Of a stretch of 64,000 nucleotides of DNA, positions 300-51,716 are shown piece by piece (within the stretch, counting starts at the first letter, position 1; the number at the start of each line of letters is the position of its first letter). Made by a program: the position numbers and the translations under genes. The notes under the pieces are model-generated. The model was not told the DNA's origin. It made no database searches and saw only the letters and a program-made list of their open reading frames with translations. The stretch is from an uncultured Anaerolineae bacterium. Lineage in GTDB: Bacteria; Chloroflexota; Anaerolineae; JAFGEY01. The stretch is from assembly GCA_964449465.1 (NCBI GenBank), contig CAYVBK010000015.1, positions 1-64,000 of the forward strand. The letters run 5' to 3'.

Positions 300-1004
300 A
301 AGAATCTCCTTTCCTCCAAAAACCCGGTTTGTACAGCCAAATTTCATATGAAATACAAATTCCATTATATCATCACAAGTGCGTTTTGTGCCTTACAGCA
401 TCCTTACAGTTTTGGGGCTTCCGCCAGCAAATACCCTTTGCCTTTGACCGTCATCACCACCTCCGGTCCAAGCTTGTTCTTGAGGCGGTGAACGGCCGTC
501 CAGACCGCATTGAGATCGACGCAGGACGCGCAGCCCCACACCTCGCGGCGCAGCGTCTCGAAGGCAACCACCTGTCCCCGGCGGCGGGCCAGGCACGCCA
601 GCAACGCGGTTTCGAGTGAGGTCAATGATATGGTCTCGCCTTCGCGAGTCGCCCGGCCGGTGCGCAAATCGGCGAGCCATTCACCCACCCGAAACTGCTC
701 TCTGACCTGCCGCGCCGCCCAGGCCTCCTGCACGGTCGCCCAGACTTGTTTCGGTTGGAACGGTTTGGTCAAATAGTCAAACGCGCCCCGTTTCATCGCC
801 TCCACTGCCTGCGCCACCGTCGCAAAAGCGGTGAGCAGAATCACCTCCGGCGCAGGGTCGAGCGTTTTCAGCCGCTCCAGCAGCTCGATGCCCGACAGCC
901 CCGGCATGACCACATCCAGCAAAACCAGGTCTATATTGTTCGTGCTGGCTAAATGCCAGGCTTGAACGCCATCGACAGCCGGCCATACAACACACCCATA
1001 ATGG

Positions 1005-1140
1005 ACTAGGAGCGTGCTGAAAAACTCCCTCACTACCAAGACACAGAGGACACAAAGCATTTCTAGCGACTCAAAAGTATCGTAAACCTTTGTGTTCTCA
1101 GTGTCCTTTGTGATGGAAACCGACTTTTTCAGCGGCCTCC
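1005..1140. mobile_element. MITE-like ~135 bp element (copy A), inserted into the response-regulator copy 1 coding sequence.
   Basis: Terminal inverted repeats CTAGGAGCGTGCTGAAAAA ... TTTTTCAGCGGCCTCC and an internal inverted repeat (acaaaggacac...gtgtcctttgt). Same family as 30605..30738, 33455..33605 and the 61954..62360 array. The uninterrupted paralogs read cataatgggccaggtacg across the insertion point. Confidence 0.75.
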
Positions 1141-1249
1141 CAGGTACGTCGCCAGAATATCCCGCGTGTCGGGGTCGTCGTCGGCCACCAACACGCACGG
1201 CGCGCAGCCGATCATTTTCCGCCTCCGCCAATGAACCTGGATGTGCTCC

Positions 1250-1277
1250 ATTATATGCAGAGTGAGGGGAGGGGCAA
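1250..1277 (-). promoter_or_regulatory. Sigma70-like promoter (TTGCCC-N16-TATAAT) of response-regulator copy 1.
   Basis: On the minus strand reads TTGCCCCTCCCCTCACTCTGCATATAAT. The same module is conserved upstream of all four regulator genes in the window. Confidence 0.4.
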
Positions 1278-1746: not shown

Positions 1747-4305
1747 TCAGTCTACTAGCTGCTGAGCCTGCTGCTGTGCTTCCGCCAGCACCGACGCTGC
1801 TTGCGCGCCGGACAGAATCTCGGCAAAAGCCCAATCGAGCCATTTCAGTTGATCGGACTGTTGAGCAGTGGGCCAGGGAACGGGAATGTATTCCAACACG
1901 GCGCGGTAGGTGTCCAAATCCTTCTCTTCACCAGCCCATATCTCAACATCGAGTTCCCAGCCCGAGCGTCGAGCCGGCATGCGTCCGGGAAAGAGGGCAT
2001 AATCGCTGGCGAACTTGATCCATTCCCAGCAGGCCTGTGCGTGCAGAGTCTTGTCGCTGATGAACAGGCCAGTGTAGATAAACTGCGCTGCCGAAGCATC
2101 CGGCGAGACCGGCAGCGGCGCGATACCCACCGGCATTGCAGCTGGCAGGGCCAGATCGCGGTCGATGCCGGAATAATCTGTCCACATAGCGACACGCCCC
2201 TGCCGCACCAGCAGACTGAGCGCAGCCTGGCTATCGGCCTCCGACAGGTTGGCGGATAAAACGGGCAGCACGTGGTGCTGCAACGCCAGGTCGGCAAACC
2301 ATTGCACCGCCGTGACCACGTCGGGCGCATCGAAGCGTGGCTGGCCTTCCGCATCCCACAATTCAACACCCTGCAATGCCAAAAAGGCAGGCAGGTTAGC
2401 AATCTGACCATTCAAAAAGGCCAGGCCGTACTGCTCCAGAGCCGGATCGGTCGAGGTCAAGGCAAGCGCTTTACCCACCAGATCGTCCGTCGTCCAACCC
2501 GGTTCGGGGTAGGCGACACTGGCCTGGTCAAACAGGGCACGGTTGAAAAAGACAACCCGGGTCTCCGCGCACACCGGCAACCCCCACAGTCCATTCTGAT
2601 GTCGAAAAGCATCCACAAAATACACATCTTGCAATGATAAGGTGGGATCGGCGTTAACGAACGGCTGGAGATCGAGCAGCCCCGCGCGGGTATTGCCGCC
2701 GGCCGCCGAAGCAAACGACCGAGCAGAACAGTCGGCGGCGACAGGAGCAGCGTCGTCGACTAACTCGACCCAAATGCGCTTTTGCGCTCCGTTAAAGATC
2801 TCTATCGTCTCCCGCCAGACATTTTTTTCGGTCACATCACAAGAAAAGCGAACGGTTGTCCGTGTCCCGACGCGATCCGGCTGGTTTGAGGCGACAGCCG
2901 GCGGCGGGACGGGCGTAGCCTGCGAGAGAGCAGCGAGCGATTGGGACGCCTGCATCTGGGCTGTGCCCAGAGCATCCTGAATAGTCTGCCCGGCCCAAAC
3001 CGCCTCGACGGCAGACTGAAGTGCGGTAGCAATCTGGGGATAAAGCGGCACTCGGGCATGATCGAGCGCGTACCGGATCGCCGCAGCATCCGCTTCGTCC
3101 CACTGCATCCAATAGCCGGACTGCCGGGCAACCGAGACGCGGGCAGGGAGGCTGTACGCCGAACCACCCGTCACACACTGGCGGCTCAGGAATTTGAGCC
3201 ACCGCCAGCTTGCCTCGCGATACGCAGTGCCGCTGCTGATCAGGTAGCCTTGCACGTACAGGGGATTGGCGTTTTGCTCGCCCAGCGGCAGGGGCGCTAC
3301 CCCGACCCGCCGCTCGCCGGTCTGTCCCATGACGGGCAGGCCGCTCAACAAGTTGATCCACATAGCGGCCCGGCCGGTGTTGACCAGATCGTACAGCCAC
3401 ATCTGCCGGGCGGGTGCGCCCCGCGACGCCTGAGCGTTCGACCATTCCTGCGGTATCCGGGCCGGATCGGGCATCACACCGTGCCAGAGCGCCAGATCGA
3501 CATACCATTGCAGCGCAGCGACGGTCTGCGGCGTGTCCAAAAGCAGCCTGGGCGGTTCGACCGAATCGTCGACCAGGCTGCCGGTCACGCCCTCGACAAA
3601 GGGCGCGACTTGCATACTGACATCGACCAGTCCGTAGCGCTGAATTTCGTTTCCCTCGCGTAGGGTCAACTGCTGTGCCGCGACAAGCAGGTCTTCGCGG
3701 TCCCAACCCGGCTGAGGATAGGGCAGACCGGCGGCGTCAAAGGCATCTTGATCGTACAGCATCACGATCAAGTCCGCCTGGGCCGGCACGCCCCAGACGC
3801 GATTCCCCTGCACCATGCGCTTCCACAGCGCGGGGTAAAAGTCGGCCTGCTCAAACTCAGGATCGGCCTCGATCAAGGGAGCGAGGTCGAGCAACAAGCC
3901 CTGCCTGATCGCGCCGGGAGACGGCATCCAATAGGCGGTGTCCGCCGTCGAGACGATTTGATAGGCGATTTCGGCCTCAACCTGGGCTGCGTTCTCGGAA
4001 GTCAGCCTGGACAGATCGGCTATTTCGTTCAGAGTCACGATGCGAACGCGGACGTCCGGGTTGTCCTGCTCGAAAACGCCAGCCAGGCGGACAAACTCGG
4101 GCTTTTGCCACTCGTAGCAGGCAAACGAGATCGTGATCGGCTGGGGATCGTCTACCTGGACAGCGGCGCGGGTTGGCGCGACCGTCGGTGAAGGAGGCAC
4201 GGACGATAGGGATGCGGTAGACAGATTAACCGTTTGGCAGGCTGGCACAGTGATGATAAACAAAGTCAAGGTGATCAAGAAAATGAATCGATGTCGATAG
4301 TTCAT
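1747..4305 (-). CDS. Large lipoprotein with two tandem extracellular solute-binding protein (SBP family 1-like) domains.
   Basis: Start ATG at 4305 follows SD AAGGAAGGA. Lipobox LFIITVPAC. Two internal repeats resemble periplasmic-binding-protein N-termini (ITISFACYEWQKPEFV.. and TTVRFSCDVTEKNVW..). No permease or ATPase gene is adjacent. Confidence 0.65.
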   Translation of the reverse strand: MNYRHRFIFLITLTLFIITVPACQTVNLSTASLSSVPPSPTVAPTRAAVQVDDPQPITISFACYEWQKPEFVRLAGVFEQDNPDVRVRIVTLNEIADLSRLTSENAAQVEAEIAYQIVSTADTAYWMPSPGAIRQGLLLDLAPLIEADPEFEQADFYPALWKRMVQGNRVWGVPAQADLIVMLYDQDAFDAAGLPYPQPGWDREDLLVAAQQLTLREGNEIQRYGLVDVSMQVAPFVEGVTGSLVDDSVEPPRLLLDTPQTVAALQWYVDLALWHGVMPDPARIPQEWSNAQASRGAPARQMWLYDLVNTGRAAMWINLLSGLPVMGQTGERRVGVAPLPLGEQNANPLYVQGYLISSGTAYREASWRWLKFLSRQCVTGGSAYSLPARVSVARQSGYWMQWDEADAAAIRYALDHARVPLYPQIATALQSAVEAVWAGQTIQDALGTAQMQASQSLAALSQATPVPPPAVASNQPDRVGTRTTVRFSCDVTEKNVWRETIEIFNGAQKRIWVELVDDAAPVAADCSARSFASAAGGNTRAGLLDLQPFVNADPTLSLQDVYFVDAFRHQNGLWGLPVCAETRVVFFNRALFDQASVAYPEPGWTTDDLVGKALALTSTDPALEQYGLAFLNGQIANLPAFLALQGVELWDAEGQPRFDAPDVVTAVQWFADLALQHHVLPVLSANLSEADSQAALSLLVRQGRVAMWTDYSGIDRDLALPAAMPVGIAPLPVSPDASAAQFIYTGLFISDKTLHAQACWEWIKFASDYALFPGRMPARRSGWELDVEIWAGEEKDLDTYRAVLEYIPVPWPTAQQSDQLKWLDWAFAEILSGAQAASVLAEAQQQAQQLVD

Positions 4306-4442
4306 AGTCCTTCCTTGAGCGATAGGTAGCATAGAATAAACAAAACACCAATGGGCAGCGCTCAGTCCATTGGCGTTTTCAAGGTGCGGTCAAACACCCT
4401 CTATTATATCATCACAAGTGCGTTTTGTGCCTTACAGCATCC

Positions 4443-5120
4443 TTACAGTTTGGGGGCTTCCGGCAGCAGGTACCCTTGGCCTTTGACCGTCACCACTATT
4501 TCCGGGCCGAGCTTGTCCCTGAGGCGGTGAACGGCCGTCCAGACCGCATTGAGATCGACGCCGGACGCGCAGCCCCACACCTCGCGGCGCAGCGTCTCGA
4601 AGGCAACCACCTGTCCCCGGCGGCGGGCCAGGCACGCCAGCAACGCGGTTTCGAGTGAGGTCAATGATATGGTCTCGCCTTCGCGAGTCGCCCGGCCGGT
4701 GCGCAAATCGGCGAGCCATTCACCCACCCGAAACTGCTCTCTGACCTGCCGCGCCGCCCAGGCCTCCTGCACGGTCGCCCAGACTTGTTTCGGTTGGAAC
4801 GGTTTGGTCAAATAGTCAAACGCGCCCCGTTTCATCGCCTCCACTGCCTGCGCCACCGTCGCAAAAGCGGTGAGCAAGATCACCTCCGGCGCAGGGTCGA
4901 GCGTTTTCAGCTGCTCCAGCAAATCAAGGCCCGACAGACCCGGCATCACCACGTCCAACAGAGCCAGGTCTATGCCATTGATCATCGCCAGCTCCCAGGC
5001 CTGCTTGCCGTCGGCAGCCGGCCATACGGCGCACCCATAATGGGCCAGGTACGTCGCCAGAATATCCCGCGTGTCGGGGTCGTCGTCGGCCACCAGCACG
5101 CGCGGCGCACAACCGTCCAT
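4443..5120 (-). CDS. OmpR/PhoB-family response regulator (receiver + winged-helix), copy 2, intact.
   Basis: MDGCAPRVLVADDDPDTRD..LLDVVMPGLSG..KRGAFDYLTKPF receiver, with a C-terminal trans_reg_C-like domain (..VWGCASGVDLNAVWTAVHRLRDKLGPEIVVTVKGQGYLL). GGAGGTG SD lies 7 nt before the ATG at 5120. Confidence 0.85.
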   Translation of the reverse strand: MDGCAPRVLVADDDPDTRDILATYLAHYGCAVWPAADGKQAWELAMINGIDLALLDVVMPGLSGLDLLEQLKTLDPAPEVILLTAFATVAQAVEAMKRGAFDYLTKPFQPKQVWATVQEAWAARQVREQFRVGEWLADLRTGRATREGETISLTSLETALLACLARRRGQVVAFETLRREVWGCASGVDLNAVWTAVHRLRDKLGPEIVVTVKGQGYLLPEAPKL

Positions 5121-5292: not shown

Positions 5293-7746
5293 TCAGGGCA
5301 CCATTTGGGCCAGCGGATGCGCCTGGTCGGTCTCCCGCACGCATTTGCCCAACGTGGACGGCTCGACCCCGGCGGCTGCACTCATGCACGCCGCAAACTG
5401 TGCTGCCTTGTCTTGAGCCTGCAACAAGGCGGCCTCCAGCCCAACGCCCGTTTGCCGCAGCGCCGTCTCGAACCACCACAAGGCCACGTCCTGGACCATG
5501 GCCGCGTCGTCCCGTCCAGGCAGATTTTGGCCGCGCTTCAGGGCGGTCAAGTATGCGGCGCGCAAATCGCGGTTTGAAGCGGCCTGCGTCTCCCAACCGT
5601 CAAGCAATGTCCGGTTGGCCGGAAGCGCGTCTGAAGCGGGCGGAAATTGGTGGGCCAGCGCAGCCCACTCCCAGGCTATATTGGCGTGTTGGCTGCCGCG
5701 AACGACGCCGGCAAAAGTGACCTGGATGGGCCAGCGGACGCCGGCACGCGGCACGATCGCCACCGCGTCCATCGGCTCGCCCCGGTAATGCTGTATGCCG
5801 AAAAAGCCGACCGGCAACTGCATCACCGAGGCTGAAGTGGTGGGGGCGAGAATTGTCCCGCTGGCTTGCAGCGAGCCCAGCCATTCGAGCGCCTCGATGA
5901 CCAGGGACGAGACAAACTGCGGGGTGAGGCGATCCGGCTCGAACAGCGAAATGCCCTGTTGTTCCAGGACAAAACGCACCTCGCTGCCGGAAAGCGGCGC
6001 ATAGCCGATCAGTTTGGGGTTCGCCGCCCGGATCTGGGCCGCCGCCGCCAGCACGTCGGCGACCGTCCAATCGGAAGCGGGGGGCGCGATGCCGAGTTCG
6101 GCAAAAGTGGCCGCGTGATAGTACAACACCAGCGGGCGCATCGACAGGGGAACGCCCAGGACGCAGCCATGCCACGAAACGACCTGCAGCGCCTGTGCAT
6201 CGAAAGCATCAGCGTCGAGATTGACCTCGCTCAGCGAGCTGACCGCAGCCATATTTTGCTGCGCGTAAAGGAACACCAGCCAATCGAGTGGGTTGGTATC
6301 CCAGACCAGCACGTCCGCCTGTTGGCCGGCAGGGCCTACATCAGACACCTGAACGCTCCAGTCAGGATGCTGCGCCGCGAACGCTGCCGAAATGGTCTCA
6401 TAGTCCGGCACGTTCGAATTCATGTTCATCACCGCCAGCGTTTCTTTGTCCTGGCTTGAGACGACCTGCGGCACGACGGCAAACGGCTCAAACTCGGTGT
6501 CGTACTCGTACCACAAATCTACCGCCGCCCGCGCCGACTGTTGCGCGTGGACCAGGGCCTCGCCGGGCGGCACATCGGCGTAACAGGCTTCGAGCATAGC
6601 TTTGATCAGCGCCAACCGAAATCGGTTGACCAGTTCGCGCTCCGTCCAATCAGGCAGGTACGCCTGCCCGTCGAGGATAGTCTGCACCCACTGCGCGACC
6701 TGCACATCCATCTTGTCCCAGCTACGGGCTAGGTCGGCCACCGACTTGCGCGCAGGCAAGTCGGCACTGGCATTGGGCGGCAGATTTTGGCTCAGAAAAC
6801 GGACCCAGGCCCAGGCGGCCTGGACGTTTTGCGTGCCCCGGCTGATGCTCAAAACGCCATCCGCCTTGATCTCTTGAAACAGGTTGGGCTGTGGGTACGC
6901 TGTCATCGCCAGGCTGACAAAGTCTTGCTGCTGGGCTACAAAGTCTCGAATCAAGACCGTTGTCATCGCGGCCCGGCCTTCGTCGAGGTAGGCCAGAGGA
7001 CGATAGCCTGCTGGTGGACCGACTTGCGGATCGACGGCAACGGACAATTCGGGCAGAAAGCGGCACACGTCGGATAGGGAGGCTTCCAGTTCGACCGCGT
7101 TCAGCGCAGGCACAAGCTGTCCCTCAATATAGGTGTACAGTGGCGATTGTGCGTGCAGCCAGTTGAACAAGACAATGCTGCGATCCAGGTCGTCGGAGAA
7201 CGCAGCCGTTTGTTCCGGGCCTGGATGGCTCATATTGACCGCGCGGGCTATATCAAGCAGTGTTTGCCATGACCACGCAGACGACGATAAATCGATCCCC
7301 GTTTGAGCCACGAGATCGCTGTTATAAACCAGCGCCTCAAACTCCAGCCCGATTGGGATGCCGATCAAGCGGTCGTCGACCCGCGTGTAGATGGTCTCAT
7401 AGCCGGTGGCCAGCGCACCTGGATAAAAATCATCGACCTCAAACTGAGGGTCAGATTTGATCAACGATTTGAGATCGATGAGTAGGTCGGTCTCATAGGG
7501 GGTGTGCCATAGCAGCGCGGCATCAAAGTGGAGAGGCCAGTCATCGGGGATATTGTACTGATAGGTAATGTGAATTTCATACCCAGGGAAACGCTCCTCA
7601 AAGTCGGTTATGTACTCGTTCAAGTCGAATGCAGGGTGGGCAACAAAATAGATCGGCGTGGGGGCGGCGGGGGTCAGATTTATACAACCAGACAGACAGA
7701 ACAAACTAAAGATTATTAGCCATTGTGTTTTATTTAAAGAGATCAT
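5293..7746 (-). CDS. Large lipoprotein with tandem SBP-like domains, a paralog-type partner of 1747..4305.
   Basis: ATG at 7746 follows an AGGA SD. Lipobox LFCLSGC. Two SBP-like halves in 817 aa. Same architecture and neighbourhood as 1747..4305. Confidence 0.65.
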   Translation of the reverse strand: MISLNKTQWLIIFSLFCLSGCINLTPAAPTPIYFVAHPAFDLNEYITDFEERFPGYEIHITYQYNIPDDWPLHFDAALLWHTPYETDLLIDLKSLIKSDPQFEVDDFYPGALATGYETIYTRVDDRLIGIPIGLEFEALVYNSDLVAQTGIDLSSSAWSWQTLLDIARAVNMSHPGPEQTAAFSDDLDRSIVLFNWLHAQSPLYTYIEGQLVPALNAVELEASLSDVCRFLPELSVAVDPQVGPPAGYRPLAYLDEGRAAMTTVLIRDFVAQQQDFVSLAMTAYPQPNLFQEIKADGVLSISRGTQNVQAAWAWVRFLSQNLPPNASADLPARKSVADLARSWDKMDVQVAQWVQTILDGQAYLPDWTERELVNRFRLALIKAMLEACYADVPPGEALVHAQQSARAAVDLWYEYDTEFEPFAVVPQVVSSQDKETLAVMNMNSNVPDYETISAAFAAQHPDWSVQVSDVGPAGQQADVLVWDTNPLDWLVFLYAQQNMAAVSSLSEVNLDADAFDAQALQVVSWHGCVLGVPLSMRPLVLYYHAATFAELGIAPPASDWTVADVLAAAAQIRAANPKLIGYAPLSGSEVRFVLEQQGISLFEPDRLTPQFVSSLVIEALEWLGSLQASGTILAPTTSASVMQLPVGFFGIQHYRGEPMDAVAIVPRAGVRWPIQVTFAGVVRGSQHANIAWEWAALAHQFPPASDALPANRTLLDGWETQAASNRDLRAAYLTALKRGQNLPGRDDAAMVQDVALWWFETALRQTGVGLEAALLQAQDKAAQFAACMSAAAGVEPSTLGKCVRETDQAHPLAQMVP

Positions 7747-7856: not shown

Positions 7857-8237
7857 TTATACGCAGAAAACCAAAAAGTAATAAGTCACACAGTTGATGT
7901 CTCTCGTAGCTCCGGTTGGAGAACAAGAAGTGCCACCAGGACCATTGATGCAGTACCATTCTGCCTGCTTGTCACAAATCCTTTCGCACTTTGGTCCTAA
8001 AAGACCACAATCCCAACAATACTTTGATTGCCCGGCAGGTCGCCACTCAAACCATTCGCCAATCGCATATACGGTGCTTGGCATCGCAACGACAAGAACG
8101 GTCAGCACAAACGACGCAAGTAACATCCCTGACAACACTTTGTACATACTTTTTAAATCGAGTAACTTGAGCATTTTTCCTTGCGATTCGCTCATTTTTT
8201 CCAGAGTTCTTGAAATTGCCCGATCATATTTGACCAT
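7857..8237 (-). CDS. Small Cys-rich secreted protein, 126 aa, with a signal or anchor and 8 Cys.
   Basis: ORF on the minus strand. Hydrophobic MLLASFVLTVLVVAMPSTVYA is followed by ..YCWDCGLLGPKCERICDKQAEWYCINGPGGTSCSPTGATRDINC... Its first 17 codons lie inside the duplicated 361 bp element. An alternative ATG (MLKLL..) follows an AAGGAAAA SD. Confidence 0.45.
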   Translation of the reverse strand: MVKYDRAISRTLEKMSESQGKMLKLLDLKSMYKVLSGMLLASFVLTVLVVAMPSTVYAIGEWFEWRPAGQSKYCWDCGLLGPKCERICDKQAEWYCINGPGGTSCSPTGATRDINCVTYYFLVFCV

Positions 8238-8548
8238 AGCTTTTTATGTCAAGGGGGCCAGCCCCTTGACAAACCCCGTCGAGGGTGCTTTGCCCCCCGC
8301 CCCCCCCCGAAAACCGGGGTGTTTTCTGTCGTCGCAGACCAGGCAAAGGCCATAGCCAGACATACGAACGACTTGTGCCTGGTTTTCAGCCCCTGCCGAC
8401 AGAATGTGGGCGGCTTTTGGGGGGTCTGGGTGGGCGCAGCCCCCTACAGTGAAATGGGCATCAGTCCTTTTTCAGACGGCAGTTCATAAAACATCGTTTT
8501 TAATCTAAAAGGTTTTTATATGTCCATCAAAAATGAACGAACTAAAAG
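8188..8548. repeat. Duplicated ~360 bp structured non-coding element, copy 1.
   Basis: About 90% identical to 40293..40654. Contains a perfect hairpin TGTCAAGGGGGCCAGCCCCTTGACA (8247..8271), a poly-C/G hairpin ccccccgaaaaccgggg, and the first 17 codons of the small-ORF start (MVKYDRAISrTLEKMSE). Confidence 0.6.
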
Positions 8549-30587: not shown

Positions 30588-30604
30588 CGACCGCCAAAAC
30601 AGCA

Positions 30605-30738
30605 AGGAGTGTACTGAAAAACCCTTTTACCACCAAGACACAAAGAACACAAAGAATTTCTAAAAACTCAAAAGCATTGTAAACCTTGGTGTTCTCGGTG
30701 TCCTTTGTGGTAGAAATAGACTTTTTCAGCGGCCTCCA
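30605..30738. mobile_element. MITE-like element (copy B) in the znuA-znuC intergenic region.
   Basis: Same family (..ccaccaagacacaaagaacacaaag...gtgtcctttgtggtagaaatagactttttcagcggcctcc). Lies 18 nt after the znuA stop and 48 nt before the znuC ATG. Confidence 0.7.
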
Positions 30739-30786
30739 AGGGGGATATAGGTGTCCTCAATCCAGGATATTCAAAAGGAGCGTTTC

Positions 30787-33454: not shown

Positions 33455-33605
33455 AAGTCCGCTGAAAAAACTGGGAGCGTGCTGAAAAACCCTCTCAACA
33501 CCAAGACACAAAGGACACCAGGCATTTCTAAAAACTCAAAAGCATCGTAAACCTTGGTGTTTTCGGTGTCCTTTGTGGTAGAAATAGACTTTTTTTCAGC
33601 GGATT
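33455..33605. mobile_element. MITE-like element (copy C), with a short internal duplication of its left end.
   Basis: Same family. Left end reads gtccgctgaaaaaactgggagcgtgctgaaaaaccc, a partial duplication. Confidence 0.65.
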
Positions 33606-33611
33606 CTGTTT

Positions 33612-40233: not shown

Positions 40234-40292
40234 ACAAAAATCCTCCTATCACCGGGACAGACTTGTGCCAGCCTGAGCAGATCACTTGCAGT

Positions 40293-40654
40293 TCGCTCAT
40301 TTTTTCCAGAGTTTTTGAAATTGCCCGATCATATTTGACCATAGCTTTTTATGTCAAGGGGCCAGCCTCTTGACATACCCTGTCGGGGATGCTTGACCCC
40401 CCGAACCCCCCGAAAACCGGGGTGTGTTCTGTCGTCGCAGACCAGGCAAGGGCAATAGCTAGACATAAGAACGGATTTTCCCTGGTTTTCAGCCCCTGCT
40501 GACAGAATGTGGGTGGTTTTTGGGGGGTCGTAGGGGGTGAGGTTGCCCCCTACAGTGAAATGGGCATCAGTCCTTTTTCAGACGGCAGTTCATAAAACAT
40601 CGTTTTTAATCTAAAAGGTTTTTATATGTCCATCAAAAATGAACGAACCAAAAG
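40293..40654. repeat. Duplicated ~360 bp structured element, copy 2.
   Basis: About 90% identical to 8188..8548, including the MVKYDRAISkTLEKMSE start. Here the downstream ORF degenerates and runs into the 3' end of gene 38725..40233. Confidence 0.6.
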
Positions 40655-51113: not shown

Positions 51114-51716
51114 TCATTTTGGGGCGACACTCGGGCAATGATGCCACTTGATCGCCGCCTGCACCCGGCTTTCCACCCCCATCTTGCTCAAAATGTTGCT
51201 GACATGGTTGCTGATTGTCCGCGCACTGACACCCAACACATCCGCAATCTCGCTATCCTTCTTGCCTTCGGCCAGCAGGCCCAACACCTGACGCTCGCGC
51301 GGTGTCAACGCGCACAATACTTTTGCCTCCTCTAGCCGCGCCTGCCGCGCCGCCCAGGCCTTGCCAACCACCTGGCGCATCTGGTTGATGCAGATAGGTT
51401 TGGTCAAATAGTCGGTCGCGCCTCGTTTCATGGCTTCCACTGCCTGCGCAACCGTCGCGTACGCAGTGATCAAAACAATCTCCGGCGCGGGATCCAGCGT
51501 TTTCAGCCGATCCAGCAACTCGAGCCCCGACAGCCCCGACATCACCACGTCCAGCAAGGCGATGGCAACCTCGCCAGATTGGGCCAGCGTCCAGGCTGTC
51601 TCGCCATCGCCAGCGATCAGCACCTCAAAGCCATCATAGGTCAGGCAGCCCGACAAAATATCGCACATATCCTGGTCGTCGTCGGCGACCAGGACGCGCG
51701 GCGCGCCACACTCCAT
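51114..51716 (-). CDS. NarL/LuxR-family response regulator (receiver + LuxR HTH).
   Basis: MECGAPRVLVADDDQDMCDIL..LLDVVMSGLSG..KRGATDYLTKP receiver. HTH LTPRERQVLGLLAEGKKDSEIADVLGVSARTISNHVSNILSKMG. The receiver is ~70% identical to the OmpR-type copies. Confidence 0.85.
   Translation of the reverse strand: MECGAPRVLVADDDQDMCDILSGCLTYDGFEVLIAGDGETAWTLAQSGEVAIALLDVVMSGLSGLELLDRLKTLDPAPEIVLITAYATVAQAVEAMKRGATDYLTKPICINQMRQVVGKAWAARQARLEEAKVLCALTPRERQVLGLLAEGKKDSEIADVLGVSARTISNHVSNILSKMGVESRVQAAIKWHHCPSVAPK

Follow-up and report, generated by a model that had tools for sequence, protein, structure and literature searches.

Organization of the response-regulator locus

Three response-regulator (RR) genes, 92-96% identical to one another, lie on the minus strand of the window, a term that we use for the whole 64-kb stretch of DNA analyzed (Table 1). 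The products of copies 2 and 3 match the full Response_reg profile in Pfam (positions 1-110) as well as Trans_reg_C. Each of the three genes is situated downstream of very large SBP_bac_1-duplicated proteins of 817-876 aa (window positions 1747-4332 and 5293-7746), and several such SBP_bac_1 genes are clustered here, as they are in two related genomes (L192 and L193). The orthologs of the regulator in these two genomes share 76-77% protein identity with it and have similar neighbors, namely large SBP_bac_1 proteins and an AhpC/TSA protein. Beside the regulators, no histidine kinase was seen.

The three paralogs are mosaics. All three are near-identical over codons 81-200 (pS 0-0.02); over codons 27-80, copy 1 is strongly diverged from copies 2 and 3 (pS 0.37-0.41) and resembles the orthologs from the other genomes; and in its 25 codons ahead of the insert, copy 1 is once more close to copy 2. 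This pattern suggests that gene conversion is ongoing among the paralogs. A fourth regulator, at 51114-51716, is a NarL/GerE-type RR with receiver-domain DNA 72-79% identical to that of the three OmpR-type copies, which suggests domain shuffling between regulator classes.

Table 1 Features of the disrupted regulator gene, its paralogs and the repeat family (window positions).
Feature	Position	Strand	Remarks
RR copy 1, OmpR-type	404-1215	-	Three-paralog alignment, Pfam
5' fragment of RR copy 1	1129-1215	-	ATG, 25 native codons (MIGCAPCVLVADDDPDTRDILATYL), GGR from the MITE, TGA at 1131-1129
3' fragment of RR copy 1	404-1003	-	199 codons plus stop; Response_reg 22-110, Trans_reg_C; no native start codon
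Promoter-like site of RR copy 1, TTGCCC-16-TATAAT	1250-1277	-	In sequence conserved among the three paralogs
MITE body in RR copy 1	1010-1139 (130 bp)	+	GAGCGTGCTGAAAAAC...GACTTTTTCAGCGGCCTC; 134-column gap in the paralog alignment
Left target-site copy, CTAG	1006-1009		Tandem array, MITE L065 and seven IS copies also flanked by CTAG
Right target-site copy, CCAG	1140-1143		One transition away from the left copy; equals the empty-paralog sequence
Terminal inverted repeat, end variant 1	1009-1027	+	GGAGCGTGCTGAAAAAC(TC)
Terminal inverted repeat, end variant 2	1122-1140	-	GGAGGCCGCTGAAAAAGTC
Inner hairpin of ACACAAAG-type repeats	1040-1105		Arms 18 nt, 89% complementary (1040-1057/1088-1105)
ATG inside the MITE	1058-1060	-	Start of the 218-aa product P0362 in public gene calls; no Shine-Dalgarno upstream
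RR copy 2, intact paralog	4443-5120	-	225 aa, empty site
RR copy 3, intact paralog	9338-10015	-	225 aa, empty site
Family copy c5	30603-30740	+	Fills the spacer between znuA-like and ABC-ATPase genes; CAAG flank at each side
Family copy c6	33471-33606	+	Right end degenerate; intergenic, between two minus-strand genes
Three head-to-tail family copies	61954-62360	-	Units 61958-62087, 62092-62221 and 62226-62356

Anatomy of the insertion in copy 1

In a three-way DNA alignment of the RR genes, copy 1 carries a 134-column insertion (columns 631-764) at the point where copies 2 and 3 read an uninterrupted CATAATGGGCCAGGTA. In the orthologs from L192 and L193 the site is likewise uninterrupted, with TAT TTG ACC CAT spanning it. 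Because two paralogs and two orthologs are contiguous here, the extra DNA is best read as an insertion into copy 1 and not as a deletion elsewhere. Its junctions are base-precise, with 0 host bases lost, and the full layout is CTAG-GAGCGTGCTGAAAAAC...GACTTTTTCAGCGGCCTC-CCAG; an empty copy-1 site would read CATAATGGAC(T/C)AGGTACG. The net insert comprises a 130-bp element and one 4-bp target duplication or, equivalently, a 132-bp element and a 2-bp duplication.

The two target-site flanks agree at three of four positions (CTAG/CCAG), and on the coding strand the difference falls in the silent third position of a Leu codon (CTA versus CTG). At nearly every other insertion of this element clade the target is CTAG. 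Either the target in copy 1 was CCAG and the left copy was altered later, or it was CTAG and the right copy was altered later; since the RR paralogs are mosaics, the mismatch could plausibly have arisen when gene conversion from a paralog overwrote the right copy, the other possibility being mutation of one of the two. The duplication itself may comprise the 4 bp CTAG or, if the G and C are counted as part of the element, the 2 bp TA, two readings that cannot be told apart at any junction seen because the terminal G...C of the element mimics CTAG.

The element ends in imperfect terminal inverted repeats of 17-22 nt, the outer ones measuring 22 nt with 77% complementarity (1006-1027/1122-1143), and encloses an inner hairpin (Table 1). 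Folded as RNA, the whole element forms one long hairpin of -56 kcal/mol (z = -5.7 relative to shuffled sequences). At the Rfam gathering level the window gave no match, and the copy-1 insert is not a known structured RNA; at permissive thresholds the only matches were sub-threshold ones to generic hairpins (miRNA precursors), at 1029-1117. The 130-bp element contains open frames at chance level only and no transposase gene.

A repeat family in the window

Five other copies of the element are present in the window, 84-91% identical to that in copy 1 (E-values 1e-37 to 1e-51), and all five are intergenic. The left-end 17-mer occurs six times, as against 0.15 occurrences expected, and the core GCTGAAAAA is invariant across all copies. 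The element is a repeat family and not a chance resemblance. Three of the copies form a head-to-tail array of 130/131-bp units with single CTAGs between them and at both flanks. The array has a period of 134, equal to the net insert size in RR copy 1, and 134 is what an element plus one target duplication predicts; repeated insertion into a CTAG beside an existing copy would produce such a tandem array. The two target flanks match fully at c5 (CAAG/CAAG), in the tandem array (CTAG/CTAG) and in a MITE found in another contig, L065 (CTAG/CTAG). The recency of the insertion into copy 1 is not quantifiable, because the element there is 9-16% diverged from the other window copies.

In its size (<300 bp), its terminal inverted repeats and target duplication, its dispersed copies, its filled and empty sites and the absence of a transposase, the element has the properties of a MITE, and its terminal repeats are held in common with autonomous ISs (L111 and L151; see below).

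The initial annotation had described a 136-bp element with terminal inverted repeats of ~19 bp at 1005-1140. The insertion itself stands, as does the statement that the paralogs read straight through the point, to which the orthologs in L192 and L193 can be added; the size has to be revised to 134 bp net, made up of the 130-bp body at 1010-1139 and a 4-bp duplication. The inverted repeats are real and imperfect, measuring 17-22 nt, and the target-site duplication for which an alignment check had been proposed is present in imperfect form (CTAG/CCAG). That reading had been staked on kinship between the insert and other MITE copies, which the identities of the five window copies bear out. Its further claim that the family is or was mobile finds support in the six copies at unrelated window sites, in the empty paralogs and orthologs, and in relatives in L126, L102, L132 and L192.

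Hairpin repeats of 110-190 nt with the same architecture, CTGAAAAA..ACCACAAAG(G/A)ACACAAAG..loop..CTTTGTGTCCTTTGTGG..TTTTTCAG, were also seen at L004, L022, L039, L058, L057, L011, L019, L031, L050 and L051. The metagenome-assembled genomes (MAGs) bearing them are labelled Anaerolineae, Chloroflexota, Gemmataceae, Thermoanaerobaculia and Nitrospirae, and MITE-like hairpins of ACACAAAG repeats recur in MAGs labelled Anaerolineae, Planctomycetota, Acidobacteriota and Nitrospirae. JAFGOJ01, an Anaerolineae MAG, contains a family of ~190 nt whose ends read ATGACTCTACTGAAAAAAG. A separate repeat of ~370 bp (90% identical) is intergenic in the window at 8180-8548 and 40285-40654, and within each of its two copies a small ORF begins (MVKYDRAIS.TLEKMSE...).

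Disruption of the regulator gene

RR copy 1 retains its promoter-like site, ribosome-binding site and ATG (1215-1213). The insert parts codon 25 from codon 27 and, since its 134 nt are not a multiple of three, shifts the frame; translation from the native ATG ends after 28 residues, at a stop three codons past the native 25. The 199 downstream codons hold the phospho-acceptor Asp, the remaining receiver domain and the OmpR-type DNA-binding domain, and are without a start codon, strand β1/α1 and the DDD acidic pocket. In receiver domains generally, the DDD acidic residues hold the Mg2+ needed for phosphorylation. The downstream piece matches the Response_reg profile in Pfam at positions 22-110 only, plus Trans_reg_C, and in no single frame of copy 1 does a complete Response_reg stand together with Trans_reg_C.

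Removal of the 134 nt restores an open, intact 225-codon gene, and for this reason the insertion is the only visible lesion. Relative to its paralogs the restored gene has a pN/pS of ~0.33, and its copy-specific residues (VVWPAVDGVQAWHLASTNNIDL) match those of the orthologs P0002-P0004; because of these two features, we conclude that copy 1 was under purifying selection until the insertion. Judged from its sequence, RR copy 1 is most likely a young pseudogene, tolerated given two intact paralogs within 9 kb.

These results sharpen the initial annotation, which had the ribosome-binding site, the ATG and ~30 codons separated from the rest of the gene: the separation holds, with 25 codons in place of ~30. 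The loss of the DDD acidic pocket and the frameshift that it described are both borne out (Response_reg 22-110 as compared with 1-110; TGA at 1131-1129). As it also stated, the six-frame ORF at 404-1384 owes its continuity solely to one stop-free frame of the element. This frame is open in six of the six window copies and not in distant relatives. The annotation had predicted a copy 1 either inactivated or re-wired by a new N-terminus; from the sequence, inactivation is much more likely, the ATG in the MITE having no ribosome-binding site.

Re-wiring would entail a restart at that ATG (1060-1058, minus strand) and would give a phosphorylation-independent protein of 218 aa, made up of a MITE-encoded hydrophobic N-terminus (MLCVLCVLVVREFFSTLLV), a truncated receiver and an intact OmpR-type DNA-binding domain. 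It has in its favor that one element frame is open and in phase with the downstream gene, that the 199 downstream codons are without decay and that the product, P0362, is already in public gene calls. However, beyond the missing Shine-Dalgarno sequence, the ATG lies inside the -56 kcal/mol hairpin and upstream translation stops 69 nt ahead of it; a receiver without β1/α1 (profile positions 1-21) is unlikely to fold; and, by our estimate, chance alone would leave about one frame in eight open over 43 codons. We therefore regard re-wiring as unlikely, and the P0362 entry in public protein collections, which starts in the MITE with MLCVLCVLVVREFFSTLLV..., is probably an annotation artefact of the open frame. 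A broader proposal would make the ACACAAAG-type hairpins between CTGAAAAA...TTTTTCAG ends a conserved RNA/DNA module used by the host, with copy 1 giving rise to P0362 as a MITE-initiated, phosphorylation-independent regulator isoform. If true, copy 1 would be an example of a MITE giving rise to a new regulator isoform; we think this quite unlikely.

Ends and target site shared with IS5/IS1182-type insertion sequences

The contig L111 holds a complete IS with the layout gctga-CTAG-GAAGGTGCTGAAAAAGTC...(541-aa ORF)...GGGGTTTTTCAGCACGCTC-CTAG-aggc. Its 541-aa transposase scores 306 bits against the IS1182 model NF033551 (cut-off 270), contains DUF772, DDE_Tnp_1 and DDE_Tnp_1_6 domains and has a homolog named 'IS1182 family transposase [Anaerolineae bacterium]' by NCBI; two other proteins, P0261 and P0275, pass the same model. 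Together with its CTAG, the left end of the MITE (CTAGGAGCGTGCTGAAAAACCC) matches one end of this IS at 24 of 24 nt, and GCTGAAAAAGTC in the right end of the MITE is common to the other end of the L111 IS and to that of six more IS copies of its clade in the long contigs L186-L191, four of which are identical copies at different loci in one sample. An IS5-type element, L151, has the same end as MITE variant 1, located 70 nt upstream of a transposase fragment that scores 148 bits against the IS5 model NF033581 (cut-off 140). CTAG flanks seven IS copies of the clade, one of them as CTAG...TTAG. The interiors of the MITE and the L111-clade ISs are unrelated; only the ends are alike. In a trap-plasmid study, the functional IS1182 member ISPse1 of Paracoccus gave 4-bp direct repeats (PMC3281130).

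Because its ends match those of ISs that pass the IS5 and IS1182 models, and CTAG flanks both, we assign the 130-bp element by sequence to the MITEs of IS5/IS1182 type, with CTAG-like sites (C-W-A-G) as its target. A tblastn search of the 64-kb window with the L111 transposase gave no match. Neither an IS5/IS1182 transposase nor any longer element bearing these ends occurs in the window, which is a point against this reading; mobilization would have been in trans. Literature searches turned up neither IS1182-derived MITEs nor this MITE family.

The exact 31-nt core pattern had 0 matches among genomes sampled at one per species, and the hits of a looser core pattern were for the most part chance matches or hairpin repeats of other kinds. 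Searching metagenome contigs for the left terminal repeat gave 120 loci, also mostly chance matches, of which 11 are preceded by CTA when ~1.9 would be expected (Poisson p ~4e-6); the ISs in L111 and L151 came from this search. Diverged full-length relatives of the MITE, with 76% identity, are present in the metagenome contigs L126 and L102, and another relative lies in the related genome L192 (7927-8048). The ~185-bp MITE in L065 has the same ends, including GCTGAAAAAGTC, a different interior and CTAG at both flanks. A longer variant with the same ends occurs in L132 (7520-7693, minus strand; ~170 nt), where it has ~45 nt extra after the central CTAG and adjoins a sequence resembling a tRNA 3' end; the extra sequence might be another small element, nested within the first at its central CTAG.

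A CTAG target with a TA duplication is typical of IS630, and the junctions described here are equally readable as a TA duplication inside CTAG. The element might in that case be an IS630/Tc1-mariner-type MITE like the cyanobacterial Nezha, inserted by an IS630-family transposase that duplicates TA within CTAG, and the size of Nezha, about 130-170 bp (PMC3184786), is similar. Against this, the ISs with ends identical to those of the element encode transposases that pass the IS1182 and IS5 models, IS1182/IS5 is the only type of IS found to have such ends and none is of the IS630 type, and copy c5 is flanked by CAAG, which would correspond to a duplication of AA and not TA. We hold an IS630-type origin to be decidedly unlikely and retain the IS5/IS1182 assignment.

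An ORF beside a MITE end in L140 was considered as a parent transposase and rejected, as it belongs to a ~570-aa family (P0121 and relatives) of a different IS, which has its own ~45-bp terminal repeats and had integrated at a MITE copy's central CTAG. It looks like an unclassified IS of ~2.3 kb (L140 81-1285, L185 1-2564 and L180-L184), CTAG-flanked and with ~45-bp ends reading CTAG-CATTACCCTTGAAC...AACAACCGCATAATTGG. The product of its orfA (~170 aa) weakly resembles IS630 transposases in their N-terminal helix-turn-helix region (E 1e-6). The overlapping orfB (~570 aa) has no Pfam or NCBIfam match; D117, D193 and E302 are invariant in it, and its motif FRQRWxxQERxIRQM recalls the DDE enzymes of IS4/IS5. 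There are 454 homologs, mostly on contigs of 2-2.6 kb. A structure model of one protein of this IS, P0122, was poor (pLDDT 70, pTM 0.38, core <50), and a PDB fold search with it returned coiled-coil matches only.

Proposed origin of the disrupted copy

Taken with the anatomy of the insert, the shared ends and target make it very probable that a non-autonomous MITE of the IS5/IS1182 type, moved in trans, hit a CTAG-like site in RR copy 1 and gave rise to a young pseudogene. The two ends of the MITE are the two end variants of IS5/IS1182-type insertion sequences. A DDE transposase of this type, supplied from elsewhere in the genome, would have bound the 17-22-nt terminal repeats, and the element would have entered the CTAG-like tetranucleotide in codons 25-26, duplicating its target. 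The 134 added bases shift the frame, bring about the early stop and cut 199 codons off from their start, as can be read directly from the DNA. Copy 1 would thereafter have persisted as a young pseudogene, tolerated given the two intact paralogs.

Three gene copies of 92-96% identity and a multi-copy repeat are classic causes of misassembly, so that the repeat might have been wrongly joined into one of three near-identical genes in this metagenome assembly. We consider such an artefact very improbable, since the junctions are base-precise without loss of host bases, the insert occupies a duplicated CTAG/CCAG site in just the way that the other copies and the IS copies occupy theirs, and both flanks carry copy-1-specific substitutions. 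That the insert is an intervening sequence, removed as an intron or bypassed by translational hopping so that copy 1 still makes a normal protein, would fit its strong structure and the intact reading frames on either side, and is rejected as extremely improbable given the transposon hallmarks (terminal inverted repeats, target duplication and IS-like ends), the five intergenic occurrences of the same element, the lack of any Rfam match beyond weak generic hairpins and the absence of matching take-off and landing codons.

That a MITE should disrupt a redundant paralog is expected biology and not a new mechanism. The locus offers a clean example of an ordinary kind of event, with transposition visible at base-pair resolution, by a so far undescribed MITE family of an uncultured lineage that is tied to IS5/IS1182-type transposases targeting CTAG. 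For annotation, copy 1 should be listed as a disrupted gene and the 218-aa product should be dropped. The empty and filled paralogs are a ready-made substrate for testing excision and target choice.

Comparison with known mobile elements

With ISs of the IS1182/IS5 families (DUF772 plus DDE_Tnp_1) the element shares its terminal repeats, in 24 of 24 nt at one end of the L111 IS and in GCTGAAAAAGTC at the other, as well as the CTAG target and 4-bp-type duplication seen in this clade. It differs from them in its length of 130 bp, in having no transposase gene, in its unrelated interior and in the absence of an autonomous copy from the window.

MITEs are mostly intergenic, and intragenic cases are known (PMC10969869, PMC3184786). 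Rickettsia palindromic elements and their like (PMC3184786) resemble the copy-1 insert in being palindromic repeats inside a coding gene with one stop-free frame. Those elements keep the frame and the host protein, whereas the insert in copy 1, at 134 nt, is not a multiple of three and truncates the product after three more codons.

The Nezha MITE of Anabaena and Nostoc (Zhou et al. 2008, summarized in PMC3184786) is alike in size (~130-170 bp), in its stable hairpin and in sharing terminal repeats with an IS; the IS with these repeats is absent from the host genome itself, and the evidence for mobility is, as here, the comparison of empty with filled sites. Nezha differs in its ISNpu3-like parent and its cyanobacterial hosts.

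The closest documented parallel is MITEAba12 of Acinetobacter baumannii, interrupting hns (PMC6382973). It too is a MITE of ~110-130 bp with imperfect terminal repeats shared with a full IS, it interrupts a regulatory gene, and the arguments made for it are the same, namely repeat identity and target duplication. MITEAba12 differs in its 9-bp duplications, its AT-richness and its co-resident parent, ISAba12; its transposition was seen in the laboratory, with a phenotype (PMC6382973), whereas the element described here is known from sequence.
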